From the sequence record OM386654.1: a stretch of DNA of 64,000 bases; one strand, given 5' to 3'. This stretch comes from Escherichia phage vB_EcoM_ESCO9. Below the pieces are notes generated by a model that searched no databases, was not told the DNA's origin, and saw nothing but the letters and a program-made list of their open reading frames with translations. The position numbers and the translations under genes were made by a program. Below, piece after piece: positions 29,656 to 55,883 of this stretch (positions are counted from its first letter, which is position 1; each line of letters opens with the position of its first letter).

Positions 29656-30090
29656 ATGTCTATTGTGACACAAATGAAAGCAGATCGTATCTTAGCACGT
29701 ACAACCGACAAGGGTGCTTTTGCTTTGTTAACTAATATTATTGGTGAGTTTGACCTTGCTCGTACTCAAAAGGCAAATCTGAACAAATCAGAAGATGATA
29801 TTATGATTAACATTGTTAAGATTGGTATTGCACACGCTAAAGAGGAACTAGACTCGCTTAAGAAAGTTAATGCTTCCATTAGCAAATGTGAGCGAGCTAT
29901 GCGTGATATCACCACTCTGGAAAAATATTTACCAGAAATGCTATCTGAAGATGACCTTCGAGCGATTGCTGAAGAATTTGCCTTGACAGGCAAGAAAATG
30001 CCAGATATGATGAAACACCTTAAAGCAGAGTATCCTAATCAATATGATGGAAAACTTGCTTCTACCATTGCCAAAGAAATTTTAAACTAA
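29656..30090 (+). CDS. GatB/YqeY-domain protein
   Basis: C-terminal LEKYLPEMLSEDDLRAIAEEF...DGKLASTIAKEILN resembles YqeY. Confidence 0.65.
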   Translation: MSIVTQMKADRILARTTDKGAFALLTNIIGEFDLARTQKANLNKSEDDIMINIVKIGIAHAKEELDSLKKVNASISKCERAMRDITTLEKYLPEMLSEDDLRAIAEEFALTGKKMPDMMKHLKAEYPNQYDGKLASTIAKEILN

Positions 30091-30107
30091 TTTAGAAGGA
30101 GAACATA

Positions 30108-31058
30108 ATGATTGCATTTTACGCTAATAAACTGGAAGTTAAAAAAGCAGCAGAAGAGATGGGTATCCTGCATATTCTTAATGAAGCAATTCACAAAAGT
30201 TTTGGTTACACATCTGAAGCAGAAATCAATGATCTGATTCATAGTGTTAATGACTTGTTCTTCTATCCTAACTTCCTACAGCAATTAGATGGTTGTGGAT
30301 TTGAATATATGGAACTTCACCCTGAATACACATTTATGGAAGTAACACCTGAAGGTTTTCTGGAGATTATTCGTACTGAATATCTTGCCAACGAGGATAA
30401 AGAAATGGATATGGTTGCAAAAGTACAACTGACTGTGCATAATACGTGTTTCCTGGATACTAGTGCAACGGAAGAAGATATTAGTTATCTGCTTTCCGTT
30501 TGTAATCCGCATTGTCCACAACCACATTGGAAAGATGCAGACCATTATCTAACATATTCAACTGAAGAAAACATTACTTTCTTCGATGAAAACAGTGGTA
30601 TTAATGGTGCACATAAGAATTCTCCATATAGGAAAGATCGGTTTGTAGTTGATGTAAAAACATTTACTAAACTGTTTGAGGAGTATTATTCAAAAAATGA
30701 AAGTAAGACTGAATCTTCACCAAAACCACGTTTTCGCCGACCGCGTAAACCTGTGCCTACTCGTTCTGTAAGTTATGTTCGTATCATTTACACTACGCAG
30801 CAGGTATATACTCTTAAGAACGTAAGCACTCTTACTGTACAAGAAGATGTAATTAATATTGTGCGTAATAATGTTATTACAGAGGGTATTGAGGAAAAGA
30901 TTATGTCTGTTATCGATCCTAAACTTGTTATGGCAATCATTATTAATGAACCAAAAGGTGTAACAACATTGTTCCGAAATATTCATGGCACTTGGGAAAC
31001 TCAAGTTGACGGTTTGACTTCTGACGGTTGTACACGTATTACCAAAAACCTTGACTAA
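30108..31058 (+). CDS. hypothetical protein
   Basis: 316 aa; AAGGAG RBS. Confidence 0.6.
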   Translation: MIAFYANKLEVKKAAEEMGILHILNEAIHKSFGYTSEAEINDLIHSVNDLFFYPNFLQQLDGCGFEYMELHPEYTFMEVTPEGFLEIIRTEYLANEDKEMDMVAKVQLTVHNTCFLDTSATEEDISYLLSVCNPHCPQPHWKDADHYLTYSTEENITFFDENSGINGAHKNSPYRKDRFVVDVKTFTKLFEEYYSKNESKTESSPKPRFRRPRKPVPTRSVSYVRIIYTTQQVYTLKNVSTLTVQEDVINIVRNNVITEGIEEKIMSVIDPKLVMAIIINEPKGVTTLFRNIHGTWETQVDGLTSDGCTRITKNLD

Positions 31059-31105
31059 GATCAAGGACAATCTTACGAAAAAGATTTAAAATAAAGATCC
31101 ACCCT

Positions 31106-31134
31106 AAAGCCAGCTTAATGCTGGCTTTTATTTT
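31106..31134 (+). terminator. intrinsic terminator
   Basis: aaagccagc-ttaat-gctggcttt then tatttt. Confidence 0.6.
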
Positions 31135-31147
31135 CCACGGAGGATTA

Positions 31148-32947
31148 ATGACCCAAAAACTATATGAGGATGTAATCGGATTCCTCGAACAAACATCCGA
31201 AGAATTTACTCGTGAAAATGCAAACAAACCTGCAATGATTGTTAATACTCACCGAGATTTACTAGCAGGTATCCTAAGCAAGCACATGGCAATGACCCAT
31301 ATTTTACCTGAAGATTTAGCAGAATGGCATAAAAGTGGGTATGGTCACATCCACGATTTAGATTATTTACTCTCACCTTTAACTAATTGTTGCCTGGTAA
31401 ATTACCAAGATATGCTTGAGAACGGTTTCCGTATTGGTAATGCACATATTGAAAAACCAAAATCTATCGGTGTAGCGACTACTGTCCTAACTCAAATTAT
31501 TCAAGCAGTAGCTTCTAGCCAATATGGTGGACAAACTTGTGCACATGTTGATACTGGGCTTAGTCAATACGTTAAAGCAAGTTTTAATAAAATATATGCT
31601 GATGTTGGCGATTATGATATTGCTATGCGTATGGTAGATAAACAGGTCTATGATGCAATGCAAACTTTAATCTACCAGGTGAACACTCTAATGAGTGTAA
31701 ATGGTCAGTCACCTTTTATAACAATTAGTTTAGGTTTGGATACCTCTGCTTTTGGTAGAATGATCACTAAAAACTACCTAATGGTGCACAAACAAGGGTT
31801 GGGAAAAGATAGGGTAACTCCTGTGTTTCCTAAAGTTATCTTCTTCTTGGAAGATGGTGTTAACATGAAAGCTGGCGATCCAAATTATGATTTGAAGCAA
31901 CTGGCAATGGAGTGTTGTGCTGAACGCATTTATCCTGATTTTATCTCTGTACCTTTAAACAAAGAAGTTACAGGATCTTCAGATGGTCGCGTCACAAGCA
32001 TGGGTTGCCGTAGCTTCTTGTCATACTATGCAACAGAGCAAGGTGAAAAATATGATGGTCGTTTCAACTTAGGCGTAGTTTCTTTAAACTTACCTATCAT
32101 TGCAGCAGAGTCCCGTGAAAAGGGCATCTTATTTACTGAACTGTTGGAACAACATATGGAGATGGCGTATAAGGCACATATGCTACGTGTTAACCGTATT
32201 AGACATACCAAAGCATCTCAAAACCCTACATTGTTTATGGAAGGGGCTTTAGCTCGACTAGAAGCTAATGAAGAGATTGGTAAACTATTCGAAGGTGGTT
32301 ATGCCTCTATTAGTATCGGTTATGTAGGTTTAGCAGAAGCTATGGAGATTTTATACCCAGGTAACACCAATCCAAAAGCAATGGGTAAAAACATCCTTCA
32401 ATATATGAAGGATATCTGTGGCACATTTAAAGAACGTTCTGGTTTAGCTTTTAGTTTGTATGGAACACCAGCAGAATCCTTGTGCTATAAATTTGCCAAA
32501 GCATTAAATGATCGCTATCCTGGTTCTATTGATCGTGACTACTTGACAAACTCTTTCCATCAACCTGTGTGGATGCACACTACCCCGTTCCAAAAGTGGG
32601 ATTATGAGGAAGGTTTTGCACAAATCAGTAATGGTGGGAACATAGGCTATGTAGAAACACCAAACCTTAAAAATAACTTGCAAGCACTGGAAACCCTTGT
32701 AGATTATGCCTACAACAAAATTCCTTATTTTGGCGTGAACCAACCTGTAGATCAGTGTTTCAAATGTGGTTTTCATGGTGAATTTAAGGCAACAGCTAAA
32801 GGCTTCGAGTGTCCAATTTGTGGCAATCATGAGGAAGAATCTATATCTGTAATCAGAAGAGTGTCAGGATACCTGTCTGCCCCTAACTCTCGCCCTTATA
32901 ATAAAGGTAAAATGCAAGAGGTATTAGAAAGGGAGAAACATTTTTGA
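31148..32947 (+). CDS. nrdD: anaerobic ribonucleoside-triphosphate reductase (class III)
   Basis: C-terminal glycyl-radical RVSGYL motif and Zn ribbon CFKCG...CPICG; start moved to ATG 31148 after GGAGG. Confidence 0.9.
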   Translation: MTQKLYEDVIGFLEQTSEEFTRENANKPAMIVNTHRDLLAGILSKHMAMTHILPEDLAEWHKSGYGHIHDLDYLLSPLTNCCLVNYQDMLENGFRIGNAHIEKPKSIGVATTVLTQIIQAVASSQYGGQTCAHVDTGLSQYVKASFNKIYADVGDYDIAMRMVDKQVYDAMQTLIYQVNTLMSVNGQSPFITISLGLDTSAFGRMITKNYLMVHKQGLGKDRVTPVFPKVIFFLEDGVNMKAGDPNYDLKQLAMECCAERIYPDFISVPLNKEVTGSSDGRVTSMGCRSFLSYYATEQGEKYDGRFNLGVVSLNLPIIAAESREKGILFTELLEQHMEMAYKAHMLRVNRIRHTKASQNPTLFMEGALARLEANEEIGKLFEGGYASISIGYVGLAEAMEILYPGNTNPKAMGKNILQYMKDICGTFKERSGLAFSLYGTPAESLCYKFAKALNDRYPGSIDRDYLTNSFHQPVWMHTTPFQKWDYEEGFAQISNGGNIGYVETPNLKNNLQALETLVDYAYNKIPYFGVNQPVDQCFKCGFHGEFKATAKGFECPICGNHEEESISVIRRVSGYLSAPNSRPYNKGKMQEVLEREKHF

Positions 32948-33414
32948 ATTACGCCGGATATGAACCTGTTGACATGCTCAACGGTGATGGTGTAAGATGC
33001 TCTTTGTGGGTGAGCGGTTGTAGCCACGGTTGCCGTGGCTGCTTTAACCAGAAAGCCTGGTCGTATAACTACGGACAAGAGTTCACTACTGAAACATTAG
33101 ATCTTATCTTGAAAGATTTATCTCGACCTTTCATTAAAGGATTAACAGTTTTAGGTGGTGAACCTCTTGACAAAGAGAACATTGACACTGTAGAGTATGT
33201 TCTTGAGAAGGTAAGAGATTGTTTTGGAAACAAAAAAGATATTGTCTTATATACAGGATATCTTTTTGAAGAAATTCCAGAAAAAATTAAAAAACTGGTT
33301 GACATAGTGATAGATGGTAAGTATGATATGAATCAACCAACAACGAAACGTTATAGAGGCTCAGATAATCAACGAATGTGGGTTAAGAAAGACAACATTT
33401 GGGAATCTGACTAA
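32944..33414 (+). CDS. nrdG: anaerobic RNR activating protein (radical SAM)
   Basis: CSHGCRGC radical-SAM cluster motif; TTG start overlapping nrdD stop. Confidence 0.85.
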   Translation: MNYAGYEPVDMLNGDGVRCSLWVSGCSHGCRGCFNQKAWSYNYGQEFTTETLDLILKDLSRPFIKGLTVLGGEPLDKENIDTVEYVLEKVRDCFGNKKDIVLYTGYLFEEIPEKIKKLVDIVIDGKYDMNQPTTKRYRGSDNQRMWVKKDNIWESD

Positions 33415-33434
33415 ATTAAATAGAGGAGAAAACT

Positions 33435-34595
33435 ATGTTTACAGTATTCGGCAATCAAATCTTTCTGCGTCAGAAATCTGGTACAGATATTGAAGAAATT
33501 CCAGCAGGAACTTTTGGTGTAGGTGTTACTCAAAGTGGTGAGTTCTTCCTGTATCCTAAAAACGATATGGAAGTCCCTTCAGTAACATACGGTGATACTG
33601 ATGATAAATCAGAACGTATTATCAAAACGTTCCTTAGCCGCAAAGGTAAAAACACAGGTGTTCTCCTTGAAGGTACGAAAGGTAGCGGTAAAACTTTGCA
33701 AGCTAAAATGCTGTCTTCTGCTCTTCGTGAAATGGGTATTCCTACTATTTCTATCGGTAGTGCTTTTAATGGTGAAGGCTTTATCAATTTTATGTCTAAA
33801 ATCACACAACCTGTGATGATTATGATCGATGAATTTGATAAACTGTATGCTGAAAAAGATGCACAAGATGGTTTGCTTACCCTGCTGGATGGTGTTGGTG
33901 GCTACGACAAACTGTTTGTATTGACTAAAAATGATGGTTATGTATCAGAATTTTTGCGTAATCGTCCTAGCCGTATTTTCTACAGTTTTAGCTATAAGAA
34001 ACTACCTAAAGCTACTATGGATGATTATCTGGCTAAAAATCTGGAGAACAAAGCCTTCTTACCAGATTTTGAAACGCTTTATAATCTCTCCGTGGATTTG
34101 AACTTTGATATTGTTCAGTCATTAGTAGAAGAACTTAACCGTTACCCTAATGACAAATTCTCTGATGCACTTGCATTGATGGGTATCAGTATTACTGAAC
34201 ACCGCTATGCTGCAAAAGAGGTTAAACTTCTGAAAGTTAACGGTGTAGATCGTACAGGAGATGTTTCGTCAGATACCGATATTGACGGTATGACAGCACA
34301 AGGTTTGTTTAGCGGTAATCGTTATGTTGTAGCTGTAGACCATAAACTAGGTGAAGAGCATCTTCCTGAAATGGAAGGGATTGTTACCGTAGAAGATAAA
34401 GATGAAGAAGGTGATTACTACTGGGGTGTAGACCGTATCTTGCTAACGTATGATGAAAAACACATTCGTACAATGGGTGGTGACGGCTATCACTTTATGT
34501 TCACCGATGATAAAGGTAACAACATTGAAGTTGTTATTAAAAACAAAGAACGTAAAAACTACACAGAGTATGTGTTTGGTGGTCGTTCTTACTAA
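33435..34595 (+). CDS. AAA-family ATPase; paralog of 18328..19455
   Basis: GTKGSGKT, IMIDEFDK, LFVLTKN...RPSR; roughly half of aligned residues shared with the paralog. Confidence 0.7.
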   Translation: MFTVFGNQIFLRQKSGTDIEEIPAGTFGVGVTQSGEFFLYPKNDMEVPSVTYGDTDDKSERIIKTFLSRKGKNTGVLLEGTKGSGKTLQAKMLSSALREMGIPTISIGSAFNGEGFINFMSKITQPVMIMIDEFDKLYAEKDAQDGLLTLLDGVGGYDKLFVLTKNDGYVSEFLRNRPSRIFYSFSYKKLPKATMDDYLAKNLENKAFLPDFETLYNLSVDLNFDIVQSLVEELNRYPNDKFSDALALMGISITEHRYAAKEVKLLKVNGVDRTGDVSSDTDIDGMTAQGLFSGNRYVVAVDHKLGEEHLPEMEGIVTVEDKDEEGDYYWGVDRILLTYDEKHIRTMGGDGYHFMFTDDKGNNIEVVIKNKERKNYTEYVFGGRSY

Positions 34596-34603
34596 GTGAT
34601 AAA

Positions 34604-34628
34604 AGGAGGCGAAAGCCTCCTTTATTTA
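34604..34628 (+). terminator. intrinsic terminator
   Basis: aggaggc-gaaa-gcctcct then ttatttat (GNRA loop). Confidence 0.6.
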
Positions 34629-34641
34629 TATGGAGGGTATT

Positions 34642-34833
34642 ATGGATCATTATTTTGTTTTTAAAGATAAAGTTGATACCGCAGGTGGTCACGTTGCTAA
34701 AAATGATCGTGACATTAAAGAAGTATTAGGAGATCTGATTAACATTTTAGAACAAAAAGAGTTGCTTTTAGATAAGGATATTGCTAGACTTCTTGGTGTG
34801 GGGATAAGTGACATACAAAGATTACCATTCTAA
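34642..34833 (+). CDS. small hypothetical protein
   Basis: GGAGGG RBS before ATG 34642. Confidence 0.4.
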   Translation: MDHYFVFKDKVDTAGGHVAKNDRDIKEVLGDLINILEQKELLLDKDIARLLGVGISDIQRLPF

Positions 34834-34845
34834 AGGGGGAAGAAA

Positions 34846-34998
34846 ATGCTTACAGATGATGAATATAAAGCTATCCAAGAAAAACTAACGGAGCTTGAAA
34901 TTCTTGCTGTCAATATTAAAGATCAATCACATGCTGGAAAGTTACTACATCAAGAGATCAATAAAATTAAGCAGATGATATTCTTTTGGACGGAGGAT
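34846..34998 (+). CDS. small hypothetical protein (50 aa)
   Basis: ORF below track cutoff; GGGGGAAGAAA RBS. Confidence 0.3.
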
Positions 34999-35003
34999 TA
35001 AAA

Positions 35004-35660
35004 ATGACTGTTAAGCATATTTCTTTTGATGTATGGAATACTCTTATTACTGCTAATCCTTTGTATGCAGAAGAACGCAACAAGGTTATTGCCGAGTATG
35101 CCTCTTGTTCTGAGGCAGAAGCAGCTACTGTTTATAAAGAGGTAAAAACTCTCTTAGATTTAAAAGCAGAAAAAGGCATTTGTGGAACGTCTAAGGATGC
35201 TTGGGTAACACTTTCTACTCGTTTGAACATTGATCTTGACAAAGTGGATGGGTTAAAAAGAGATTGTTTGGCAATGTTTATAAAACATCCTCCAACATTG
35301 AATCCTGAACTTTGCAAGAAGTTGGAAGAGCTAAGTTCAACCTACTCTTTGAGTATTAAGAGCAATACTAATTTTGTACCAGGTAGTTTCTTAGCTGTAT
35401 ATTCTGGTTTAACAAAATTACCATTCGACTTTATGCATTTTTCTGACGAGTTTTGCTTGTGTAAACCAGATCCTAGGTTTTTTAAACTCTCTTTTGATGA
35501 AATGGTGACGTTTGATCTCGCACCAGAGGAGATTTTACACGTTGGAGATAGTTTGATTTATGATGGAAAAGCTGTTGACATAGGGATGAAGTTCTGTCAT
35601 ATTATTAATCCAGAAGACTTGTTGGCTAAACTTAAAAAAGAGGAACTTATTAATGCGTAA
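35004..35660 (+). CDS. HAD-superfamily hydrolase
   Basis: Motif I FDVWNTL, motif II SIKSNTN, motif III KPDPRFF, motif IV HVGDSLIYD. Confidence 0.75.
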   Translation: MTVKHISFDVWNTLITANPLYAEERNKVIAEYASCSEAEAATVYKEVKTLLDLKAEKGICGTSKDAWVTLSTRLNIDLDKVDGLKRDCLAMFIKHPPTLNPELCKKLEELSSTYSLSIKSNTNFVPGSFLAVYSGLTKLPFDFMHFSDEFCLCKPDPRFFKLSFDEMVTFDLAPEEILHVGDSLIYDGKAVDIGMKFCHIINPEDLLAKLKKEELINA

Positions 35661-36510
35661 TCAAATTCAACATTTTGCTAATACTTTTACTAACCTGAAG
35701 GAAGCAAAATTTAACATTGCAGATTATTCCAAACTAAAGTTTGGTAGTAACCAGGCAGCAAAAAGAATGGGGCGCATTCTGGCTGAAAGTTTCTTTTCTA
35801 AGTATGAAGAACGACTGGTAAATGAAAGTTTTGTTGTTATTCCATCTCCATATAACTATGTGAAAAATGCAGCTACAGTGTTATCTGAACATTTTGTAGA
35901 TCACCTCAACTACCTAATCTCTATCAAAGGTGGTAAACCAGTGGAGTGGGATATCGTTCATCGTAAAGTGAGCTATATCAATGATTATGGATTTCTTAGC
36001 AAAGAAGATCGTAAGGCTTTGATCGATGGTGACACTTTCTCTATCAATCGTGATTTCTGGGGTAATAAAACTCTGATTTTCATTGATGATGTTAATATTA
36101 CAGGAACGCACGAAGAAAAACTTATTGAAATTTTAGACAAAGAAGGTGTTGAAAACGATACGTTTTTCCTGTACTTTGCAAAGTATGAAGGTACAGAAGC
36201 CAACACCGAAGCTGCACTTAACTTCAACTATATCAATAACCTGGCAGCTTTTATTAAGATGATTAAGCAAGAAACTGATGCTAAATGTTTGGTTCGTCCT
36301 ATTAAGTATCTAATGAGTCAAAGCGAAGTTGATTTTAAAATTGCACTTTCACAGCTTCCTTTGTATTATGTAGAACAACTGTTCTTTGGTTGCCTTGCAG
36401 AAGGCTACAATAACATTGAAAAATATAAAGAGAACTTTGATTTTCTACGTCAATTTTTTGAAAGCAACATTATCAATAAATCTAATGTTAAAGGGGATTA
36501 TTATGTCTAA
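35653..36510 (+). CDS. phosphoribosyltransferase-like protein (type I PRTase motif)
   Basis: PRPP-binding-like TLIFIDDVNITGTHEE; overlaps HAD gene stop. Confidence 0.55.
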   Translation: MRNQIQHFANTFTNLKEAKFNIADYSKLKFGSNQAAKRMGRILAESFFSKYEERLVNESFVVIPSPYNYVKNAATVLSEHFVDHLNYLISIKGGKPVEWDIVHRKVSYINDYGFLSKEDRKALIDGDTFSINRDFWGNKTLIFIDDVNITGTHEEKLIEILDKEGVENDTFFLYFAKYEGTEANTEAALNFNYINNLAAFIKMIKQETDAKCLVRPIKYLMSQSEVDFKIALSQLPLYYVEQLFFGCLAEGYNNIEKYKENFDFLRQFFESNIINKSNVKGDYYV

Positions 36511-37219
36511 TAAAGTAATGACTTTCGGAGATCCTATCACCAATATTACAGAAAAAGATTTTGGGCGTGTAGCAACAGATAAAGATGGTGTCTTAAGAAT
36601 TCGTGTACAAGGTATTACAGCACAGGATGAATATGCTGTGTATGTTTCAGGTCTTAACTATATTGATGATCGCATTACACAAAACTTTGCACTGATCGGT
36701 GGTGTAGAGAAAATGTACTGGGAAGATGAAATTGTAACAAGTTATCCAGCAGGTATCATTGAGGTATACGGTGATCTTTTAGCAGCAGCCGAGAGAGGCG
36801 ATATAGACGCTATAGCACACTGCTGTAACTGTTTTTGCACTATGGGTAGTGGTATTGCACCAAAAATTAAAAGTAAGTGGCCTGGGGCGTTTAAAGCAGA
36901 CTGTGCCACTAAACGTGGTGATTATAAAAAATTAGGTACGTTTACCAAGTATACAGAAAACAATTTGACAATTTATAATTTATATGGACAATATGGTTAT
37001 AGTCGTCGTGAGGAAGGCAAGCGTGACCTGAATTATGAAGCTATCTATAATGCGTTAGATAGTATGGGAGACGATGTTGTATCTTCAGGCGGTAAAATTG
37101 TAGGTTTACCAATGCTTGGTTGTGGTTTGGCTGGAGGTTCTTGGAATATTGTAAAACTTATGATCGAAGAAACTCTAGTAAACAAAGGTTTAAATGTAAT
37201 TGTTTACAAACTGAAATAA
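36503..37219 (+). CDS. macro-domain protein, TARG1/OARD1-like
   Basis: IDAIAHCCNCFCTMGSGIAPKIK and LPMLGCGLAGGSWNIVKLMIEE...VIVYKL resemble human TARG1 LAHCISEDCRMGAGIA / MPRIGCGLDRLQW; about 95 aa N-terminal extension. Confidence 0.75.
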   Translation: MSNKVMTFGDPITNITEKDFGRVATDKDGVLRIRVQGITAQDEYAVYVSGLNYIDDRITQNFALIGGVEKMYWEDEIVTSYPAGIIEVYGDLLAAAERGDIDAIAHCCNCFCTMGSGIAPKIKSKWPGAFKADCATKRGDYKKLGTFTKYTENNLTIYNLYGQYGYSRREEGKRDLNYEAIYNALDSMGDDVVSSGGKIVGLPMLGCGLAGGSWNIVKLMIEETLVNKGLNVIVYKLK

Positions 37220-37228
37220 GGAGAAAGT

Positions 37229-37435
37229 ATGGCAGGTGTTTTAGCAGTATTAGGTTGTTTTATTGTTGTGTTCTTGATTGTGTTAATCCCTAGTTGGCTA
37301 CTGCTTTTAGCATACAATTATATGATTGACATTATCGGCTTAGACTGGCATCATGTTCCTGTAACGTTTTGGAGTGTAGTCTGTGTGACGTTCATTCTTG
37401 CGGTACTCCGTGGTATCTTTCAATCTAACAAATAA
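37229..37435 (+). CDS. small membrane protein
   Basis: 68 aa, two TM helices; AAGGAG RBS. Confidence 0.5.
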   Translation: MAGVLAVLGCFIVVFLIVLIPSWLLLLAYNYMIDIIGLDWHHVPVTFWSVVCVTFILAVLRGIFQSNK

Positions 37436-37449
37436 GAGAGGATCTTTAT

Positions 37450-37698
37450 ATGCGTAAAGTAAATGTTGAAGTGCTTGAAAAATTTATAAACACCCGTGAT
37501 TGTACTATCGGCAAGGTTTACGAGGCTATTCTCATTGAAGATGGGGATGAAGTTCCTGCCCCGTATCATGCCTTTAACGGTCAGGTTAGCAAAGTGGAAG
37601 GTGGTCTTGCTATTTGCTTTATTGATGATGTAGGTGATGCTGTAGCTTTCCCTATCATTAACAAAGAAGATAAACTTAAAATTACAGAACTGAACTAG
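37450..37698 (+). CDS. hypothetical protein
   Basis: 82 aa; AGAGAGG RBS. Confidence 0.5.
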   Translation: MRKVNVEVLEKFINTRDCTIGKVYEAILIEDGDEVPAPYHAFNGQVSKVEGGLAICFIDDVGDAVAFPIINKEDKLKITELN

Positions 37699-37757
37699 TT
37701 GACTTTCTTTAAAAACAGTTTATAGTATAAGATATAGAGCGGAGGATTGTCCTCCGC
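37699..37757 (+). promoter_or_regulatory. promoter plus leader stem-loop upstream of TerC gene
   Basis: TTGACT, 17-18 nt, TAGTAT, then hairpin gcggagga-ttgt-cctccgc, then AAGAGGAG RBS. Confidence 0.5.
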
Positions 37758-37775
37758 ATTAAAGAGGAGATAAGA

Positions 37776-38753: not shown

Positions 38754-38759
38754 TTCATT

Positions 38760-38782: not shown

Positions 38783-38792
38783 AGGTGATCTG

Positions 38793-39576: not shown

Positions 39577-39611
39577 TAATTTAATACAGATTAAATAAGA
39601 AGGAGAAACAG

Positions 39612-46914: not shown

Positions 46915-46923
46915 GGAGTTATT

Positions 46924-47610: not shown

Positions 47611-48571
47611 TACTCCTGTACTTAAGTGTGATAATAAGTTAGGCAGTGGTTGTGATTACCATCGTATTGTAATGCCATTTGCTGGAAATACGTTTAAACC
47701 TAAGAAAGACGTTTTAGTTTTTAATAGAGTGTATTCTCGTGGATCAGACGAAGTTAAACGCCTGAAGGCACAAGGTGTTAAGATTATTGTTGATTTAGAT
47801 GATTTTTATTCGCTTAATCCTGAACATTATATGGCTGGCGTATTTACTAATCACTCAAAGACTATTGTAGAGATGATTAAGTTAGCAGATGTGGTTACTG
47901 TAACAACAGAATACCTAGCTTACAAAATTCGTCATTTAAATCGTAATGTTGTCGTTATTAGAAACGCACTACCTTACGACGAAGGTCAATTTACTTTGAC
48001 AAAAGACCGTTATTCTGACACGCCTATTATTTGGGCGGGAGGAGCAAGCCATGAACCTGATTTATCTCTTGTAGCTAATACATTTGATGATACGCTATTG
48101 ACAATTGCAGGGTATGAAGTGTATCCTTCTGCACCTGTTGGAAATAATAGTCAGTATCTAACTACTGCGGAGTGGGTTAAAGTAAAACGTAAAATTCCAA
48201 ATGCACAGTATAAACCAGCTATTAAAAATTTAGGTGAGTATATGTCTGTGTATGACGGTCACAGTATTGCAATTGCTCCTCTGGTAGATAATGACTTCAA
48301 CAACTGTAAAAGCAATTTGAAGATTTTGGAAGCAGGTGCAAAGGGTCTTCCTATTATCTGTTCTCCTGTGCTGCCGTACTTCAATCCGGTAGATGCAAAG
48401 GCTGTTATCTATGCAGACTCTAAAGCATCTTGGCATTATAAAGTTGTCAAGCTAATGAGGAACCCTAGATACACAGAAGATCGTGGTATGATGCTTGCAG
48501 AACACGTTCGTCTTAATTATAATCTTGCAGATGCTAATGAACTGCGTCGTCAAGTTATTGAAAGTCTTTAA
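47597..48571 (+). CDS. GT-B fold glycosyltransferase; paralog of 48583..49527
   Basis: C-terminal KSNLKILEAGAKGLPIICSP; start moved to ATG 47597 after GAGGAGG. Confidence 0.6.
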   Translation: MVNPNTPVLKCDNKLGSGCDYHRIVMPFAGNTFKPKKDVLVFNRVYSRGSDEVKRLKAQGVKIIVDLDDFYSLNPEHYMAGVFTNHSKTIVEMIKLADVVTVTTEYLAYKIRHLNRNVVVIRNALPYDEGQFTLTKDRYSDTPIIWAGGASHEPDLSLVANTFDDTLLTIAGYEVYPSAPVGNNSQYLTTAEWVKVKRKIPNAQYKPAIKNLGEYMSVYDGHSIAIAPLVDNDFNNCKSNLKILEAGAKGLPIICSPVLPYFNPVDAKAVIYADSKASWHYKVVKLMRNPRYTEDRGMMLAEHVRLNYNLADANELRRQVIESL

Positions 48572-48582
48572 TAAGGAGCTAT

Positions 48583-49527
48583 ATGCCTAATATTATTCTT
48601 GACACACGCGGAAATGAAAAGTATAGTGTATGTGATTTTCATAGAATCATTTTGCCATATAAACGCAAACTGACCATTAATCCTAAGCATAATATTTTTG
48701 TGTTCAATGGAGTACCAACACGTGGAAAGCCAGGTTTCCTGGCTCTTAAACAACTTGGGTTTAAATTGGTAATGGATCTGGATGATTCTTTAATTATTCC
48801 TGAAGGGCATATGCTTGAAGGATTATTTGAAAATCAAATCCGAGATGACCTAAAATGGTTCCTTGAAAGAAGTGATCTTGTAACTACAACAACTCCGGCA
48901 TTAAAGGTTGAATTAAGCCAATACAATGATAATGTACATATTGTGCCTAACGGACTACCTTTTGATGAAGGACAGTTTGTTCTTACTAAAGATCGTTATT
49001 CTAAAAGTCCACTGGTTTGGGCGGGAAGTGAAACACATAAACATGATTTAGCAATTCTTCCTGATTTTGGTAAAGATTTAACTTTATGTGGATTTCGTAG
49101 AGATCACGAAGAGTTAAGTAGTGCTCAATGGTTGCAAATTAAAGAAAATATTCAACCAGATTGTGTTTATGAAGGTATTCGTCCTTATGAGTGTTATATG
49201 GAAGCATACGATGGTCATCAAATCTCCATAGCTCCATTAGTAAATAATCATTTTAATAATGCCAAAAGTAATTTAAAAATTCTTGAAGCTGGTGCTAAAG
49301 GTTTGCCACTCGTTTGTTCGCCACGAGAGAACTATTATACTGAAGAATTTAAAGATCTAATCTTCTTTGCTGATTCAGTTAAAGAGTGGAAAGATATTGT
49401 AGAATACTTAATCGAATCCCCTGATGTTTGTATTGAGAAAGGATTGGCTCTTGCTAAGTATGTAAGAGATAACTACAATATTGATGATTTAAATGAAACC
49501 CGCAGACTGCTTATCGAGGATTTATAA
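48583..49527 (+). CDS. GT-B fold glycosyltransferase; paralog of 47597..48571
   Basis: KSNLKILEAGAKGLPLVCSP; shared DGH.I.IAPLV.N.FNN.KSNLKILEAGAKGLP block. Confidence 0.6.
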   Translation: MPNIILDTRGNEKYSVCDFHRIILPYKRKLTINPKHNIFVFNGVPTRGKPGFLALKQLGFKLVMDLDDSLIIPEGHMLEGLFENQIRDDLKWFLERSDLVTTTTPALKVELSQYNDNVHIVPNGLPFDEGQFVLTKDRYSKSPLVWAGSETHKHDLAILPDFGKDLTLCGFRRDHEELSSAQWLQIKENIQPDCVYEGIRPYECYMEAYDGHQISIAPLVNNHFNNAKSNLKILEAGAKGLPLVCSPRENYYTEEFKDLIFFADSVKEWKDIVEYLIESPDVCIEKGLALAKYVRDNYNIDDLNETRRLLIEDL

Positions 49528-49796
49528 TGCACACTTTTGATTTTGAGTATAAACAAGATAATAAAGAACCTATTATTGTTGAAGTAGATTACTATTATGA
49601 AGAACCTAACCCTTTCTCACGAGAAAGTGATTGGGATTATTATGGTGGTCTTATTGTTGATGGTATTAGGTTTTATTCTGGTACAAAAGACCTTTTTGAT
49701 ATAGATATTTCCCCATCGGAAATTGTTTACCAATTTAAGAAACATATGGAAGATTTGGAAATGCAATATATTATGGAGACAAACGAATCATTTTAG
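49527..49796 (+). CDS. hypothetical protein
   Basis: 89 aa. Confidence 0.5.
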   Translation: MHTFDFEYKQDNKEPIIVEVDYYYEEPNPFSRESDWDYYGGLIVDGIRFYSGTKDLFDIDISPSEIVYQFKKHMEDLEMQYIMETNESF

Positions 49797-49808
49797 TAGG
49801 AGAATCCT

Positions 49809-51581
49809 GTGTCTTATGTTGTAAATAAATATGGGTATAACATTGATCTAAGTCAAGAAGGACATACTGGGTGTCCTCGTTGTATGAAAGGAGGGCGTGA
49901 TCGATCACAAAACAATTTGATGGTATATGGCTTAGATGCCGATGAAGACCATCGAGGCGCACATTGTTTTTCTTGTGGCTTTACTATCCCTGATCAAAAA
50001 TGGTTAAATGCACACGGCGAAGAAATTGAAGAGGAGGATATCTTGGGTAGTGAGTTTAATCCAGAAGTACATGATAAACTAAAAGCCAGCACTGGAACTA
50101 ATCCAAAAGGTTATCGCGGTATTCGTGAAGATATCTCTAAGCCTTTCGGTGTACGTTATATGTACGATGAAGCTACTGGCGAAGTAATTTCAACACTATA
50201 CCCTACAACTAAAGATTACAATATTGCTGGGTATAAACAACGTATCGATCCAAAAGATTTCTCACATCCTATCGGTGAAACAGGAAAGGATTGTGATCTT
50301 TTTGGGGAGTTTAAATATCGTAACCACAGCGGTACTATTCTAATCGTTGGTGGTGAACACGATATGCTGGCTGCAACACAGATGCTAAAAGATTATAACA
50401 AGGGTGGTAAATATCCTGTTCCTGCTGTAGTATCTGGTACTTGTGGCGAAACATCTCTGCATAAGCAGCTTCAACATCGTTATAAATTCTTAGATCAATT
50501 TAAAAAGATTGTTCTATGTATGGATAATGATGAAGCTGGACGTGCAGCAGTTGAGAAATGTGTTAAAATCTTACCACGTAATAAAGTTTACGTGATGGAA
50601 CTAACGGATGTTAAAGATCCTAACCAGGCACTAGTAGAAGGAAAAATTGATCATTTTATTGATCGCTTTTTCAAAGCTAAACTGTACACACCTGCTGGTG
50701 TTTACGCTTCTAACGTACTATATGAAGCAGCCTTGGAATGCCTGGAAGCTAAAATGATCACCCTTCCTCCATTCATGCGTGTTGCTTCGAATATGTTAGG
50801 TGGAGGCTTGGTAGAAGAAGAAATTACTGTTATACTTGCAAAAACAAGTATCGGTAAGACACTGTTGGTTAACGAGATTACGAAACACATTATTCTTGCA
50901 CACCCAGAACATACTCTTGGTATTTTATCTTTGGAGGCAACGTATAAGAAGTATTCTCGTAACTTACTGTCTTCATTCTTGCATATCCCTCTTCACCGTA
51001 AAACGAAAGAAGAGAAGGAAAAGATTTTAAAAGATAATGAAGAAAAGATTCGTGATTTTTACGAACGAGAAGATGGAACACCACGTTTCTATGTTTGTGA
51101 TGATCGTGGAGCTAACGTAGATGTGATTAAAGAGAAGGTTCTGGAAATGATTATTTATTTCGGAGTAACCATTCTTGTTATCGACCCTTATTCTGACTTG
51201 CTTTCTGGTATGGACGTGTCACAACAAGAGGAACTTGCGACGTGGCTGAAACGCATTATGAAAGAGTATGCAATAACCATTGTTGTAATTTCACACGTTA
51301 AAAAGTCTTCTAACAATAGTAATGAACATATTGTAGAAGATGATGCAATGGGTAGTAGCTTCCTTGCTAAAGGTGCTGGTATCACAATTGCGCTGGAGCG
51401 TGATAAACAAGCTGAAGATCCTATGGAACGTAACCGCACATATTGCTACATTCTAAAGAACCGTGAGTTCTCAGAGACTGGTGCAGCAGGTAGTTTCTTC
51501 TATGAGATTAAAACAGCTACACTTCACGATTACGATCAATACACAAGTAACCCAGAGAATATTCCTGATGGTTCTTATTAA
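49809..51581 (+). CDS. bifunctional DNA primase-helicase (T7 gp4-like)
   Basis: N-terminal Zn finger CPRC...CFSCGF; TOPRIM-like VGGEHD / DNDEAG; Walker A AKTSIGKT; Walker B LVIDPYSD. Confidence 0.85.
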   Translation: MSYVVNKYGYNIDLSQEGHTGCPRCMKGGRDRSQNNLMVYGLDADEDHRGAHCFSCGFTIPDQKWLNAHGEEIEEEDILGSEFNPEVHDKLKASTGTNPKGYRGIREDISKPFGVRYMYDEATGEVISTLYPTTKDYNIAGYKQRIDPKDFSHPIGETGKDCDLFGEFKYRNHSGTILIVGGEHDMLAATQMLKDYNKGGKYPVPAVVSGTCGETSLHKQLQHRYKFLDQFKKIVLCMDNDEAGRAAVEKCVKILPRNKVYVMELTDVKDPNQALVEGKIDHFIDRFFKAKLYTPAGVYASNVLYEAALECLEAKMITLPPFMRVASNMLGGGLVEEEITVILAKTSIGKTLLVNEITKHIILAHPEHTLGILSLEATYKKYSRNLLSSFLHIPLHRKTKEEKEKILKDNEEKIRDFYEREDGTPRFYVCDDRGANVDVIKEKVLEMIIYFGVTILVIDPYSDLLSGMDVSQQEELATWLKRIMKEYAITIVVISHVKKSSNNSNEHIVEDDAMGSSFLAKGAGITIALERDKQAEDPMERNRTYCYILKNREFSETGAAGSFFYEIKTATLHDYDQYTSNPENIPDGSY

Positions 51582-51591
51582 GGAGAGAAAT

Positions 51592-51987
51592 ATGAAAGAC
51601 AACGAAAATATCCTTTATGGGGTATCCCCTTCTGCGTTAGGGTATGATTATACGAAAACTGTTGCTAAGTTTAAATTTCAAGATGGATCGGAGTTAGAAC
51701 CATACGGTTATGCTTATGGTGAACATTTGTGGTTTGAGGATGGTTGCCTATACCTTCTCATTCAAACTACCAGTGGTTTTGTGGGAGAGCTTGTAGATCG
51801 TATGCTGAAAAATGTTAGTGATAAAGTTGTTCTTGATATCGCTAGTAAGGATGAAAACATTAATAACATTGTTTCCACTTTTAATGGTTTGACAGGCACT
51901 GTTAAAATTGAACGTGTAGGCTTGAGAAATACCAATGGTGTCCCTAATTGCCTTATTAAAGTACAACTAAGTGCTGACAATAAATAA
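51592..51987 (+). CDS. hypothetical protein
   Basis: Start moved to ATG 51592 after AAGGAGAG. Confidence 0.5.
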   Translation: MKDNENILYGVSPSALGYDYTKTVAKFKFQDGSELEPYGYAYGEHLWFEDGCLYLLIQTTSGFVGELVDRMLKNVSDKVVLDIASKDENINNIVSTFNGLTGTVKIERVGLRNTNGVPNCLIKVQLSADNK

Positions 51988-51991
51988 CAAG

Positions 51992-52010
51992 AAGGGGCGA
52001 AAGCCCCTTT
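51992..52010 (+). terminator. terminator-like hairpin (weak U-tract)
   Basis: aggggc-gaaa-gcccct then tt. Confidence 0.4.
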
Positions 52011-52077
52011 ACAAAACAATTAATTTGTGGTACAGTATTAACAAATTAAGACTTTAGAAATATTTTAAGGAGGGAGA

Positions 52078-54657
52078 ATGGGAGCTTTTACTTTCGACAT
52101 TGAAAGTAACAACTTGCTTAATGACGAAAGTGTAGATTACTTGGCAAGTCCATATCGTTTAAAAGATAGTTTTGCAATGCACTGTATTGTGTGCGAAAGT
52201 CATGATACTGGAGAGATTATTGCTTTCCATGATGGTGATAAATATCTTTTCGATGGTCGTCCGTATATTGAGACTGACGGAAAGTATGAATACCGACTGG
52301 AGGAATATGAGCATTTAGAATATACCCATTTCCCTCTTAAAGATTTTCCTGATTTTGTAAATGGAACAGGTAAATTTAAAGGTAATTCAAACTATAAAAT
52401 TACCAAAGTAGTTGGACATAACATCATTAACTTTGACTTACTGGCAATTAAATTATTTTTTAAACTCAACTACAGTATTAAGTACAATACTTGGGGTAAT
52501 AGTAACATTGAAATTTGTGATACTATGATCTTAAGTAAGACACTAAACCCTGATCGCTTCGGTGGTCATAGTCTGGCAGAGTTATCTAAGAAAGCTGGAG
52601 GGGATGTTAAAATTGATTTTAGAAAAAACATCCCTGAAACTGAAAGATTTAAAACATTTGCAGCAGATATGCTGTATTACTGTATTTACGATAACAAAGC
52701 TAACACCGCAGTGTTCCGTTATTTGATGGAAGAGTGGGGTGATTATAATAAGTGGTCTGAACCATTTAACTTAGAACAACGTGTAGCTGATATTATTACA
52801 CGTCAAGAGCACCGTGGCTTTGCTTTCAATATGAAGCAAGCAGAAGATAATATTCGTGATCTGGATGCTCGAATGGAAGCATGTCGTTTAGAGGCAGAAC
52901 CTGTGCTACCTCCTAAACCTGCTACTAAAGGTTATTTGAAATCATTCATTCCACCTAAACTACAGTTTAAAAAGAATGGTGAACCTTCAAGTAACATGAT
53001 AAAGTTTGCAGAGAAACATTCTGGTGAACTTGTACAAAAAGAAGATGGTTGGTGGTTATTTGCATTAGGTAAAGAGTTTAAACTGCCTATTCCAGCAGAA
53101 GAACCTATTTGTGATCCTACAGTACCTGCTACTTTAGACGACACTACACATATTAAAAATTGGTTAGTTGGTTTAGGTTGGAGTCCATCTGAATATAAAG
53201 ATAAAGATATCACTCTTAAATCTGGCACTAAGATTAAGAAAGATGAAGCACAAATGGAGAAAGCTATTCGTGACTATGTTGATCAAACATTAGCATCTAA
53301 CTTCTGCCAGGATAGATGTGATCATCTGGAGTGCACACCAGAAACTTTGGAATGGAAACTAAGAGATCGTATTGCTAAAGCTAAAGGTCGTGGTGTTAAG
53401 GTGCTTACTAACCCTTCCTTTACAAAAGGGCAAGAGAAGGATATTTGTCCTAACTTGGAAGCACTAGGTGAAAAGTTTCCTTATGCTACGCAGATTGTGC
53501 AGTATCTTACGTATAAACATCGTAGAAACTCTATTCTAGGCGGTGGTGCTGATTGGGAAGAGGATGAAGAGGATTACGATAAAGGTTATCTGGCGGCAGT
53601 AAGGGCTGATGGTCGTATACCGACTCCTGCTGCAACGTGTGATGCAGCTACGTCTCGTATGAAACATAGGTTAGTAGCAAATATCCCACGTGTAACATCT
53701 CTGTACGGATATGAAATGCGTAACTTATTTGGTGTAGAAGTTCCAAAATACTTCCAAATTGGTTATGACTTTGATTCTCTTGAGGCAAAAATAGAATCAC
53801 ACTACTGTTGGCGGTACGAGCAGGAACCACATGAATATTGTAATGCTCTATTATTGGAAAAACCTAATGATGTTCATACAATGATGGCTCGACGTATTTC
53901 TGACACTATTGGTCGTAAGTTTGAACGAAGCCCTGCTAAATCTGTTAAGTATGGTATTACTTATGGTGCTCAAGCTGCAAAAGTAGCAAAAACTATAGGT
54001 AGTGATATGTATACAGGACAGCTTGTATACGATGCTTTCTGGGAAGCTGCAAAACCTCTTGCGCTTCTTAAAGAACGTCTGCATGATTTTTGGGTTAAAA
54101 CAGGTAAGAAATACATTCTTGGTATTGATGGTAGGAAAGTACCTACACGATCTGCACACGCAATACTTAACTCTCTGTTCCAGAGTGGTGGTGTTATTTG
54201 TGCAAAAAGAGCAATGGTTATCTACGACGATCTTATCGAAGAAGAAGGATTAGCTGTTGACTTTTTTGTTGATGACTGGAAAAATAAGTCATTCGTTCAA
54301 CAAATGATTGCATATCACGATGAAGCACAGCTTGAAGTAACTCGTGATCTGGTGCATTTTAAATGGTTCTCTAAAGAATCTTTAGGTTGGACTCAAGTTG
54401 ATGATCCAGAAGAACAAAAGAAAATTGATAAAGAATGTTTGGATAAGGTTAATGCCTGGAAAGAAGAGGAAGAGAAACGTACTGGCAAGATTTGGGCTAA
54501 CGTACATGAATCTCCGAAAGGTGGTTGGTTTACAGCCTACAGTCGTGCTGGAGAATTAGCATCTATCGCTGTTAATAAAGCTGGTGAGTATTACAATCTT
54601 AATGTACCTCTCACTGCTGGTTACGATGTTGGTAGTTCATGGTCAACTTGTCACTGA
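52078..54657 (+). CDS. family A DNA polymerase with 3'-5' exonuclease domain
   Basis: Exo I FDIES; motif A-like GYDFDSLEAKI; motif B RSPAKSVKYGITYG; motif C YHDEAQLEV. Confidence 0.9.
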   Translation: MGAFTFDIESNNLLNDESVDYLASPYRLKDSFAMHCIVCESHDTGEIIAFHDGDKYLFDGRPYIETDGKYEYRLEEYEHLEYTHFPLKDFPDFVNGTGKFKGNSNYKITKVVGHNIINFDLLAIKLFFKLNYSIKYNTWGNSNIEICDTMILSKTLNPDRFGGHSLAELSKKAGGDVKIDFRKNIPETERFKTFAADMLYYCIYDNKANTAVFRYLMEEWGDYNKWSEPFNLEQRVADIITRQEHRGFAFNMKQAEDNIRDLDARMEACRLEAEPVLPPKPATKGYLKSFIPPKLQFKKNGEPSSNMIKFAEKHSGELVQKEDGWWLFALGKEFKLPIPAEEPICDPTVPATLDDTTHIKNWLVGLGWSPSEYKDKDITLKSGTKIKKDEAQMEKAIRDYVDQTLASNFCQDRCDHLECTPETLEWKLRDRIAKAKGRGVKVLTNPSFTKGQEKDICPNLEALGEKFPYATQIVQYLTYKHRRNSILGGGADWEEDEEDYDKGYLAAVRADGRIPTPAATCDAATSRMKHRLVANIPRVTSLYGYEMRNLFGVEVPKYFQIGYDFDSLEAKIESHYCWRYEQEPHEYCNALLLEKPNDVHTMMARRISDTIGRKFERSPAKSVKYGITYGAQAAKVAKTIGSDMYTGQLVYDAFWEAAKPLALLKERLHDFWVKTGKKYILGIDGRKVPTRSAHAILNSLFQSGGVICAKRAMVIYDDLIEEEGLAVDFFVDDWKNKSFVQQMIAYHDEAQLEVTRDLVHFKWFSKESLGWTQVDDPEEQKKIDKECLDKVNAWKEEEEKRTGKIWANVHESPKGGWFTAYSRAGELASIAVNKAGEYYNLNVPLTAGYDVGSSWSTCH

Positions 54658-54684
54658 CATCTCTTTGATTTTAAAGGAGTTTTT

Positions 54685-55281
54685 ATGCTTACCGTATATG
54701 GTGAAGGTATTAATGATTTGGAAGGCGAGAGTACGCTACCTGGTAGTAAGAAACTAACGCCGCATTATATGAAATGGATGGCTATGTTGGGGAGGTGTTA
54801 CTCCCCTTGTCAACAAGAACGTGATCCTTGTTATAATGGGGTGACGGTTTGTGAAGAATGGAAACTGTTCTCCAATTTCTACTCTTGGTTGCAAACTTGG
54901 GATAACTGGGAAAACTTAGAACTTGATAAAGATATTATAGGAGGGAGAGTTTACTCTCCCGATACCTGTCTTTTAGTAACAGGAGATCTTAACAAGTTCT
55001 TAGCTTATAGAGTAAGTAAAAGATCTCATGGGACTATGGTAGGATGTAGTTACGAAAAAGATCGTAAAAAGTATAAAGCCCATATTCAACGTGATGGACG
55101 TGTTATAACACTGGGACGTTTTAATACTGAAATTGAAGCGCATCTTTGTTGGTTGAAGGCTAAGGCAGAACAGCTTACAAAATTCTTTGAAACTGAAGAT
55201 GAAAGAGTTGTTCCACATCTTAAAGCACTATATAATGAAATGCTTGAGCATGTAGAACAACACAAAGAGTGGACACGATAG
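54685..55281 (+). CDS. HNH-family homing endonuclease with AP2-like DNA-binding domain
   Basis: Y..W..M..RC N-terminal pattern; C-terminal YKAHIQRDGRVITLGRFNTEIEAHLCW AP2-like. Confidence 0.55.
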   Translation: MLTVYGEGINDLEGESTLPGSKKLTPHYMKWMAMLGRCYSPCQQERDPCYNGVTVCEEWKLFSNFYSWLQTWDNWENLELDKDIIGGRVYSPDTCLLVTGDLNKFLAYRVSKRSHGTMVGCSYEKDRKKYKAHIQRDGRVITLGRFNTEIEAHLCWLKAKAEQLTKFFETEDERVVPHLKALYNEMLEHVEQHKEWTR

Positions 55282-55289
55282 GAGAAAAT

Positions 55290-55883
55290 ATGAATATTGA
55301 AGATCAAAAAGTACGAGCTTTAGAAGTATTACGTATGTGCCAACTGGTAGATCCGTTTGCAATTGTAGCTGGCGGCGCTGTACGTGACTGGCGATTAGAG
55401 AAACCTGCGCAAGATATTGACATTTACTTGCGTATGCCTAACCACAATACACTCGTGCTAGTAGAGAAGTTTTTGATGTTGGGTGTTGGTGCACGTAATG
55501 TTAAACAACTTACTAAGCAAACAGAACACACTTATGCCGAACTACCACATTTGAAATGGGTATTTGAAGCATACTATAAAGACCTTAAGTTTAACTTTAT
55601 GATCATGGAAGAAGGTGTACGCAGTGAAATCGTATGGAACTTTGATGTAGCTATTTGCCTGTGTTACTGGGATGGTCAAAATTATGTATATCATCCAGAT
55701 TTTGAATTTGCACTGAAAACTAATATTTGTACTATTAATCACCGCTACACAGGTAAAGAAGCACACGTCCGTAAAATGGCAGAACGTTTCCCTATGTTCC
55801 GCTTTGTAAAAGACGTTTTCATTCCCAAAGAACCAGAAGTACGTACACTGGATTCATTTAACAACGAAGAATTTAAGATTTAA
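55290..55883 (+). CDS. nucleotidyltransferase, CCA-adding-enzyme head-domain-like
   Basis: VAGGAVRDWRLEKPAQDIDIY resembles GGAVRD...DxD motif. Confidence 0.5.
   Translation: MNIEDQKVRALEVLRMCQLVDPFAIVAGGAVRDWRLEKPAQDIDIYLRMPNHNTLVLVEKFLMLGVGARNVKQLTKQTEHTYAELPHLKWVFEAYYKDLKFNFMIMEEGVRSEIVWNFDVAICLCYWDGQNYVYHPDFEFALKTNICTINHRYTGKEAHVRKMAERFPMFRFVKDVFIPKEPEVRTLDSFNNEEFKI

Follow-up and report, generated by a model that had tools for sequence, protein, structure and literature searches.

A phi92-like Escherichia phage carries a head-only nucleotidyltransferase kept among replisome genes and a YqeY-domain protein, probably two unrelated accessory functions

INTRODUCTION

Class II tRNA nucleotidyltransferases and poly(A) polymerase I (PAP I), represented by the CCA-adding enzyme of Bacillus stearothermophilus (PDB 1miv), Escherichia coli PAP (3aql), and E. 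coli Cca, combine a catalytic head (Pfam PF01743) with a neck/RNA-binding domain (PF12627), a body, and a tail, the CCA enzymes reaching ∼370 to 420 amino acids in total. The YqeY domain (PF09424) is found as the tail of GatB and as a C-terminal appendage of the glutaminyl-tRNA synthetase (GlnRS) of Deinococcus radiodurans, and it contributes to tRNA binding in these two cases, the only roles of the domain that have been tested (PMC1865053, PMC2811023); free-standing bacterial YqeY has been described as not well characterised (PMC13374519). Proteins of both kinds are on record in phages: CCA-adding enzymes have been described in several jumbo phages (PMC7824862), and Aeromonas phage Aeh1 had already been tabulated as having both a YqeY-like open reading frame (ORF) and one of the true poly(A) polymerase family (PMC1524935). 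Here, we analyze one gene of each type in a 64,000-nucleotide stretch, referred to below as the window, of Escherichia phage vB_EcoM_ESCO9 (OM386654.1): a YqeY-domain gene at 29656..30090 and a nucleotidyltransferase (NTase) gene at 55290..55883. A preliminary description of the window had grouped the two as tRNA-associated accessory genes.

Our results lead us to propose that they are two unrelated accessory genes rather than one tRNA module, the NTase being a replication-phase 3'-end tailing enzyme and the YqeY protein being linked to tRNA, a reading to which we assign a probability of about 0.6. The NTase has a Pol-beta/class II head fold with a GG...DxD two-metal centre, lacks the modules that specify tRNA or the added base, and is co-inherited with replisome genes. 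Both genes belong to known domain families, and GenBank entries of related phages already annotate both, as "nucleotidyltransferase" or "putative tRNA nucleotidyl transferase / poly(A) polymerase" and as "YqeY-like" or "tRNA amidotransferase." What may be new are the figures that tie the head-only NTase family to the replisome and, upstream of YqeY, a module made of a MazG-like protein and a minimal core resembling seryl-tRNA synthetase (SerRS).

By megablast, the window belongs, with 98 to 99% identity, to the E. coli myoviruses of the phi92/VEcB group (Stephanstirmvirinae, Justusliebigvirus). It matches the reverse strand of VEcB (NC_052663), positions 1..4248 corresponding to VEcB 4539..1 and positions 4735..64000 to VEcB 147236..86761, and we use this relative as the reference for the genome type.

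RESULTS AND DISCUSSION

The NTase is a stand-alone head domain

The NTase gene (55290..55883, + strand) has an AGGAGA sequence before its ATG and encodes a 197-amino-acid protein that amounts to a class II (poly(A)/CCA-type) head standing on its own; an alternative GTG start, at 55269, falls within the preceding gene and lacks a ribosome-binding site. Its sequence AGGAVRDW...DIDIY aligns to motif A of CCA enzymes, so that in this respect the protein conforms to class II. An exhaustive HMMER search recovered 522 family clusters at 50% identity (a word-indexed search returned only 2 matches), and nearly all of the best 150 of these 522 clusters are 170 to 260 amino acids long. Since G28, G29, W34, D42, and D44 are the only invariant columns in a 62-sequence alignment of the family, the GGAVRD...DIDI motif is no chance match. 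Furthermore, the closest folds to the predicted model are, by a clear margin, RNA 3'-end polymerases. The ORF is thus real, and the head motif that underlay the earlier label "CCA-adding-like nucleotidyltransferase" is sound at the level of the fold.

The remaining features of CCA enzymes are another matter. The NTase scores 19.1 bits against the Pfam PolyA_pol profile (PF01743), below the cutoff of 23 and over profile positions 3 to 59 of 126 only, and 15 bits against the NCBIfam CCA models, whose cutoff is 290. Searches of the PDB with the sequence or the family profile (E = 0.011 for the latter) matched only the ∼40 residues of motif A, and hhalign aligned 40 columns of the family profile with E. 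coli Cca, so that sequence similarity to CCA enzymes is confined to ∼40 residues around this motif. The Pfam profiles do recognise a genuine enzyme: the positive control, g183 of Yersinia jumbo phage fHe-Yen9-04 (370 amino acids), gave 67.2 bits on PolyA_pol positions 2 to 125 and 41.7 bits on PF12627, whereas the window NTase, Gp22 of Klebsiella phage fHe-Kpn01, and p30 of Bordetella phage BB8 each reached ∼19 bits over the first half of the head only. In motif B, which serves ribose and triphosphate recognition, the RRD of g183 falls on N-F-D of the NTase in the hhalign alignment; the family members shown in the alignment have neither arginine, and their Asp column is not conserved. We found no PF12627 match in the NTase, and hence no neck domain with motif D (EDxxR, the amino acid template for C and A) and motif E; after the head, the model contains one helix and one strand, in which only K162 and F167 are conserved. 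The body and tail domains, which in CCA enzymes hold the acceptor/T-arm of the tRNA, are also missing from the 197-residue protein, and Pfam scans of the longer family members revealed no recognisable added domain or informative fusion. Compared with 1miv, 3aql, and E. coli Cca, the phage protein is therefore half as long and devoid of the RRD arginines, the neck/RNA-binding domain, the body, and the tail.

The small size (197 amino acids) and the GG...DxD motif would also suit the minimal nucleotidyltransferase that is paired with a HEPN toxin in MNT/HEPN toxin-antitoxin systems, a scenario that the preliminary description had named as the one that would overturn its own. That scenario calls for an MNT-type fold and an adjacent HEPN partner; neither was found, and the 132-amino-acid ORF downstream of the NTase contains no HEPN Rx4-6H motif. 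We consider this reading to be effectively refuted and leave it almost no weight. It is also improbable, in our view, that the NTase nucleotidylates a small molecule or a protein in an anti-defence or regulatory role or that it serves the replisome as a noncatalytic accessory subunit: its closest folds are RNA 3'-end polymerases, its invariant DxD argues for catalysis, and the 80 loci described below revealed no conserved partner or target gene.

Several stand-alone heads resemble the NTase. Streptococcus pneumoniae NP_344798.1 (PDB 2la3), a 191-amino-acid "CCA-adding enzyme head domain," is bacterial and only 9% identical to the NTase, and it offers no mechanistic help. In phages, Gp22 of fHe-Kpn01 (182 amino acids), the T7/phiKMV-like proteins labelled "poly A polymerase head domain" (LKD16, phiNV3, PP2, phiAS7, and Cd1), and ICP1 ORF223 are likewise head-only and encoded beside a PolA polymerase, and their FD...N, GG, and DxD motifs occupy positions that match those in the NTase. 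All are distant from it: Gp22 aligns over 112 columns (hhalign probability of 87%, E = 4e-6), and the others show Foldseek identities of 14 to 32%. More broadly, the viral models that Foldseek matched with this head-only fold, all of them uncharacterised, come from many T7/phiKMV-like phages, from ICP1 (ORF223), and from giant viruses. The family of short NTases has no functional study in the literature that we searched. Homologues of the NTase carry the precomputed Pfam assignment PF26128, so that Pfam apparently has a family for head-only proteins; the papers that could be searched make no mention of it.

The NTase gene keeps company with replisome genes

The genomic context of the family was examined in 80 viral loci from IMG/VR, over 6 kb, with 64 loci of the mini-synthetase described below as a control. 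In 63 of the 80 loci, the NTase has a PolA polymerase or a DnaB-like helicase no more than 6 kb away, at a median gap of 0.9 kb and on the same strand in 58 of 62 cases; taken separately, the helicase is present in 58/80 and the polymerase in 42 to 43/80. Replisome genes occur in only 5 of the 64 control loci (Fisher p = 9e-19, not corrected for lineage). Any tRNA gene near the NTase was seen in only 4/80 loci, and in the loci examined the NTase never lies within 5 to 6 kb of YqeY or of the mini-synthetase. Moreover, the complete NTase-carrying genomes of Vibrio phage 409E50-1, Bordetella phage BB8, and Klebsiella phage fHe-Kpn01 contain no tRNA gene at all. The NTase thus differs from CCA enzymes and PAP in its company as well, which is that of replisome genes and not of tRNA genes.

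The linkage is visible in phages of very different types. In fHe-Kpn01, which is T7-like, the Gp22 gene overlaps the end of the DNA polymerase gene; in BB8, the NTase stands one small ORF before the polymerase; and Pseudomonas phage PsgM04F has the same gene order as the window. In the window itself, where every ORF given here with coordinates is on the + strand, a DnaB-like replicative helicase (49809..51581, annotated "helicase" in VEcB) is followed by an endonuclease, a PolA-type DNA polymerase (52078..54657, "DNA polymerase I" in VEcB), an HNH homing-endonuclease-like ORF (54685..55281, PHROG 953 at 8.5e-74), the NTase, and two ORFs of 132 and 315 amino acids (55927..57289, PHROG 16560 and 4477, function unknown). 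The HNH ORF appears to be an insertion between polymerase and NTase: it is not at this junction in five relatives (L076 to L080), where the NTase is closer to PolA. The 132- and 315-amino-acid ORFs accompany the NTase in 10/80 loci, all from close relatives. The larger one (56342..57289) contains the sequence DFDDDIPF near its C terminus, with 18 further residues to the end, and gave a weak match to single-strand-binding proteins (SSB) in PHROGs (E = 0.005). We take DFDDDIPF to be identical to the C-terminal tip of E. coli SSB, and the 315-amino-acid protein may be a phage SSB or a mimic of the SSB tip.

The preliminary description had pointed out that phage CCA-like enzymes can repair tRNA 3' ends damaged by host defence nucleases. 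In its fullest form, this explanation makes the NTase a minimal phage CCA-adding enzyme that, with YqeY, protects the tRNA pool from CCA-clipping host nucleases. Host defences that damage tRNA 3' ends do exist, namely, Cas12a3 (PMC12851939), toxSAS (PMC11559606), and MenT (PMC11541572); jumbo phages possess CCA-adding enzymes, that of fHe-Yen9-04 lying three genes from YqeY; the head fold of the NTase is of the class II CCA/PAP type, and its GG...DxD is intact; and 15 tRNA genes are present in this genome type. The tRNA genes themselves, however, bear on the point in the opposite sense. ARAGORN and the Rfam covariance models detected no tRNA gene, nor any other RNA family, in the 64-kb window, in which no tRNA cloverleaf had been seen earlier either, and the further supposition that such genes, if any, lie elsewhere holds in VEcB (98% identical), where ARAGORN finds 15 tRNA genes (13 are annotated) at ∼50,994 to 54,104, outside the window and ∼32.7 kb from its 3' end. 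The 3' CCA is encoded in every one of the 15, so CCA synthesis is not needed for maturing them and repair would be the sole remaining role, and the E. coli host itself has Cca. With an NTase that falls below the Pfam cutoff, lacks the RRD arginines, neck, body, and tail, belongs to a family found also in phages without tRNA genes, has tRNAs near in only 4/80 loci, and never lies within 6 kb of YqeY, the repair function is not borne out: the defining features of a CCA enzyme fail, and the context is that of the replisome. We rate tRNA 3'-end repair as a poor candidate.

Only one relative of the NTase, fHe-Kpn01 Gp22, has an experimental phenotype: its expression is toxic to E. coli (PMC7291057). 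The NTase could accordingly be a host-takeover toxin that shuts down host expression, either by poly(A)-like tailing of RNA for decay or by MenT-like extension of the tRNA acceptor end. Toxicity on overexpression is nonspecific evidence, though, and the gene lies mostly among middle/replication genes and not among early host-takeover genes; in addition, the 80 loci contain no conserved antitoxin-like partner, and PADLOC has no match for the NTase. We judge this role unlikely, albeit still worth keeping in view.

We favor instead a function in the replication phase. Since the two-metal GG...DxD centre is kept, the NTase would most likely transfer a nucleoside monophosphate from a nucleoside triphosphate (NTP) to a 3'-OH. 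We envisage that it would carry out template-independent 3'-end tailing of RNA or single-stranded DNA during the replication phase. Its family is inherited within a phage DNA replication module comprising the DnaB-like helicase, the PolA polymerase, and the SSB-like protein.

The YqeY protein is a free-standing domain, in distant phages linked to tRNA genes

The YqeY gene (29656..30090, + strand) starts 12 nucleotides after the stop of the preceding gene, has a GAGGAG sequence 7 nucleotides before its ATG, and encodes 144 amino acids. Residues 38 to 143 match positions 34 to 143 of the Pfam YqeY profile with 30.3 bits (cutoff of 27), PHROG 1460 is matched at 1.5e-36, and searches of the PDB retrieved B. 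subtilis YqeY (1ng6, E = 1e-4) and 8xjg (E = 0.01). The resemblance to GatB/YqeY that had been reported for this stretch is therefore confirmed, the ORF being real and its assignment above the cutoff. The protein is 100% identical to phi92 gp195; close homologues, with 63 to 99% identity, reside on phage contigs of 140 to 157 kb and bear precomputed PF09424 assignments, and more divergent ones are carried by T5-like, Cbk-like, Sinorhizobium T4-like, and jumbo phages. The likeness to YqeY, to the GatB tail, and to the C-terminal domain of Deinococcus GlnRS is a full-length domain match; the YqeY domain is fused to an enzyme in GatB and in D. radiodurans GlnRS, whereas the phage protein is free-standing. 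It consists of the YqeY domain only, with no GatB catalytic cradle, and no GatA, GatB, or GatC is annotated in VEcB, so the database label "tRNA amidotransferase" is an over-annotation. The literature searched held no functional study of a phage YqeY.

The gene context of YqeY is very different from that of the NTase. We collected 23 IMG/VR loci (window of 6 kb) and set aside three phi92-like ones, which left 20 distant loci. Within 6 kb of YqeY, tRNA genes were present in 11 of these 20 loci (101 tRNAs in total), and tRNAs or a full-length tRNA nucleotidyltransferase were present in 18, as opposed to 4/80 by the same count for the short-NTase loci (p = 1e-6 and 4e-14, without correction for common descent). 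YqeY is located inside a tRNA array in Vibrio phage Chester and at the edge of one in Pantoea phage AAS21, and in fHe-Yen9-04 it comes three genes after the full-length 370-amino-acid tRNA nucleotidyltransferase, near a homologue of a ribosome hibernation factor. That YqeY is a tRNA-associated accessory protein is a reasonable inference from this context. The grouping of both genes as tRNA-associated accessory genes can thus be kept for YqeY, with its context in 18/20 distant loci, and is not supported for the NTase, with its replisome company and tRNAs near in 4/80. As a small helical protein of the GatB-tail/YqeY type, YqeY would bind tRNA or another structured RNA and act as a helper in trans.

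A MazG-like protein and a minimal synthetase core form a conserved unit

Two genes precede YqeY on the + strand. The first (28823..29074) encodes p83, an 83-amino-acid protein of PHROG 6408 (function unknown) that we assign tentatively to all-alpha NTP pyrophosphatases of the MazG/HisE type; the second (29071..29643) encodes 190 amino acids that, from the family profile, represent a minimal class II aminoacyl-tRNA synthetase catalytic core closest to SerRS (the mini-synthetase). The p83 stop overlaps the mini-synthetase start (ATGA), and 12 nucleotides separate the mini-synthetase stop from YqeY. An EExxE...ELxD signature is invariant in 28 aligned homologues of p83, which matches Pfam PRA-PH weakly (E = 0.03); its assignment is kept tentative because the MazG/HisE matches of its profile in the PDB (E = 0.27 to 0.64) are nonsignificant.

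The mini-synthetase has no match in Pfam, in NCBIfam, or, as a single sequence, in the PDB. An alignment of 57 homologues nevertheless displays the class II motifs SAEQSF, TPCYRxE, FLKLE, ELGSYG, and GTGLAEPR, with R84 and R173 invariant, and thus contains motifs 2 and 3 and the TxE motif of SerRS that characterize a class II core. The family profile matches SerRS at E = 4e-5, closely followed by HisZ, the carrier-protein ligase Bll0957, and PylRS, and 185 of the 190 residues align to the catalytic domain alone. There is no N-terminal coiled-coil arm as in SerRS, no anticodon-binding domain as in histidyl-tRNA synthetase (HisRS), and no tRNA-binding arm. From its sequence, the protein is a minimal SerRS-like catalytic core without a tRNA-binding arm, and the labels "seryl" or "histidyl tRNA synthetase" on such records are over-annotations. 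It differs from the SerRS catalytic domain and from SerRS-like amino acid:carrier-protein ligases (Bll0957, 3mey) by its length of only 190 amino acids, the missing coiled-coil arm, and a shortened motif 2 loop and, unlike SerRS and Bll0957, it is partnered with an 83-amino-acid MazG-like protein. Searches of PADLOC and NCBIfam yielded no useful match for p83, the mini-synthetase, YqeY, or the NTase. A second "histidyl tRNA synthetase" is encoded by VEcB outside the window (gp048, 189 amino acids, 18561..19133 of our contig L001); its similarity to the mini-synthetase is marginal (23% identity, E = 0.012), and it has no SAEQS motif and follows an ORF that is not p83-like.

The genes for p83 and the mini-synthetase are neighbours in 62 of 64 viral (IMG/VR) loci, with jumbo phages of 300 to 578 kb among them, and in at least three contigs (L063, L064, and L073) a single open frame spans both, a possible fusion. 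Genes for tRNA were found within 5 kb of this pair in 15/64 loci. YqeY was considered as a generally conserved partner of the mini-synthetase and rejected as such, since it is nearby in only 2/64 loci, both from close relatives of the phage. Given the frequencies of 62/64 for p83 and 2/64 for YqeY, the conserved unit consists of the MazG-like protein and the mini-synthetase, and YqeY is a lineage-specific addition. The literature that we searched, with incomplete coverage, contained no description of this module.

In the phi92-like lineage, YqeY would have been recruited to the end of a three-gene unit made of the MazG-like protein, the SerRS-like core, and YqeY. One could imagine that the three constitute a split synthetase-like machine, in which the SerRS-like core would activate serine or a similar small amino acid, with the MazG-like p83 as its partner and YqeY as a trans-acting tRNA-binding module, a tRNA thereby being charged or modified independently of the host SerRS; the genome type has two tRNA-Ser genes. 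That such a machine and a replisome-associated, 3'-end tailing head-only NTase should both be true, taken jointly, strikes us as a long shot.

Downstream of YqeY, a 316-amino-acid ORF (30108..31058, phrog_15930 at E = 6e-179) occupies the interval before an nrdD-like gene. A terminator-like hairpin found by a consensus scan (31106..31128, + strand; 9 bp, five of them G-C, with a T-rich tail) probably ends a transcription unit composed, on sequence grounds, of p83, the mini-synthetase, YqeY, and the 316-amino-acid ORF. PHROGs labels this ORF "ribonucleotide reductase," and yet it has no Pfam match and is present only in close relatives (3/64 loci); the label may be guilt by association.

Weight of the evidence

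Several points weigh against our proposal of a replication-phase NTase and a tRNA-linked YqeY. Because the loci that we compared share phylogenetic history, the actual significance is lower than the p-values suggest, and the replisome linkage may only reflect a shared timing of middle genes. The toxicity of Gp22 in E. coli (PMC7291057) also fits a MenT-like modification of tRNA ends, and tRNA is a possible substrate of the NTase because all close structural relatives of known function act on RNA 3' ends and because a partner could supply the binding. As for YqeY, its tRNA binding is extrapolated from fused homologues (PMC1865053, PMC2811023) and from gene context, and its position beside the mini-synthetase, restricted to the phi92-like lineage (2/64 loci), lends weak support to a functional partnership.

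For annotation, our results indicate that a GGxVRD...DxD motif in a phage protein is insufficient for naming a CCA-repair enzyme. Two leads emerge. The first is a very widespread head-only NTase (522 clusters) that phages ranging from T7-like podophages to 150-kb myoviruses inherit together with PolA- and DnaB-type replisomes and that has one relative toxic to E. coli; for this family, no paper reporting quantitative replisome linkage was found in the literature searched, the coverage of which was incomplete. The second is the conserved phage module of a MazG-like protein and a minimal SerRS-like core (62/64 viral loci). Neither lead changes current understanding before biochemistry.

Mobile elements, tRNA annotation, and record labels

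Relative to the window, VEcB carries ∼1.07 kb extra in the UvrD-like helicase gene (VEcB 124737..123666, at window positions 27832..27865) and ∼0.78 kb extra in the anaerobic ribonucleotide reductase gene (VEcB 119526..118746, at window positions 32005..32015); conversely, the HNH ORF at 54685..55281 of the window is missing from some relatives. These differences suggest that mobile elements of the intron, intein, or homing-endonuclease type are present in some of these genomes and absent from others.

Among the VEcB tRNA genes, those that ARAGORN adds to the annotation are a tRNA-Met(cat) at 1994 and a tRNA-Ser(tga) at 2515, in the numbering of the segment in which 1994..5104 corresponds to VEcB 50994..54104, and the gene annotated as a tRNA-Leu-GAA pseudogene is a tRNA-Phe(gaa) according to the same program. 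Lastly, records MG065639 and MG065645 ("Campylobacter phage A150/A145," host Campylobacter jejuni) are 99 to 100% identical to E. coli phi92-like phages in the proteins studied here, which suggests a mislabelled host or a contaminant.

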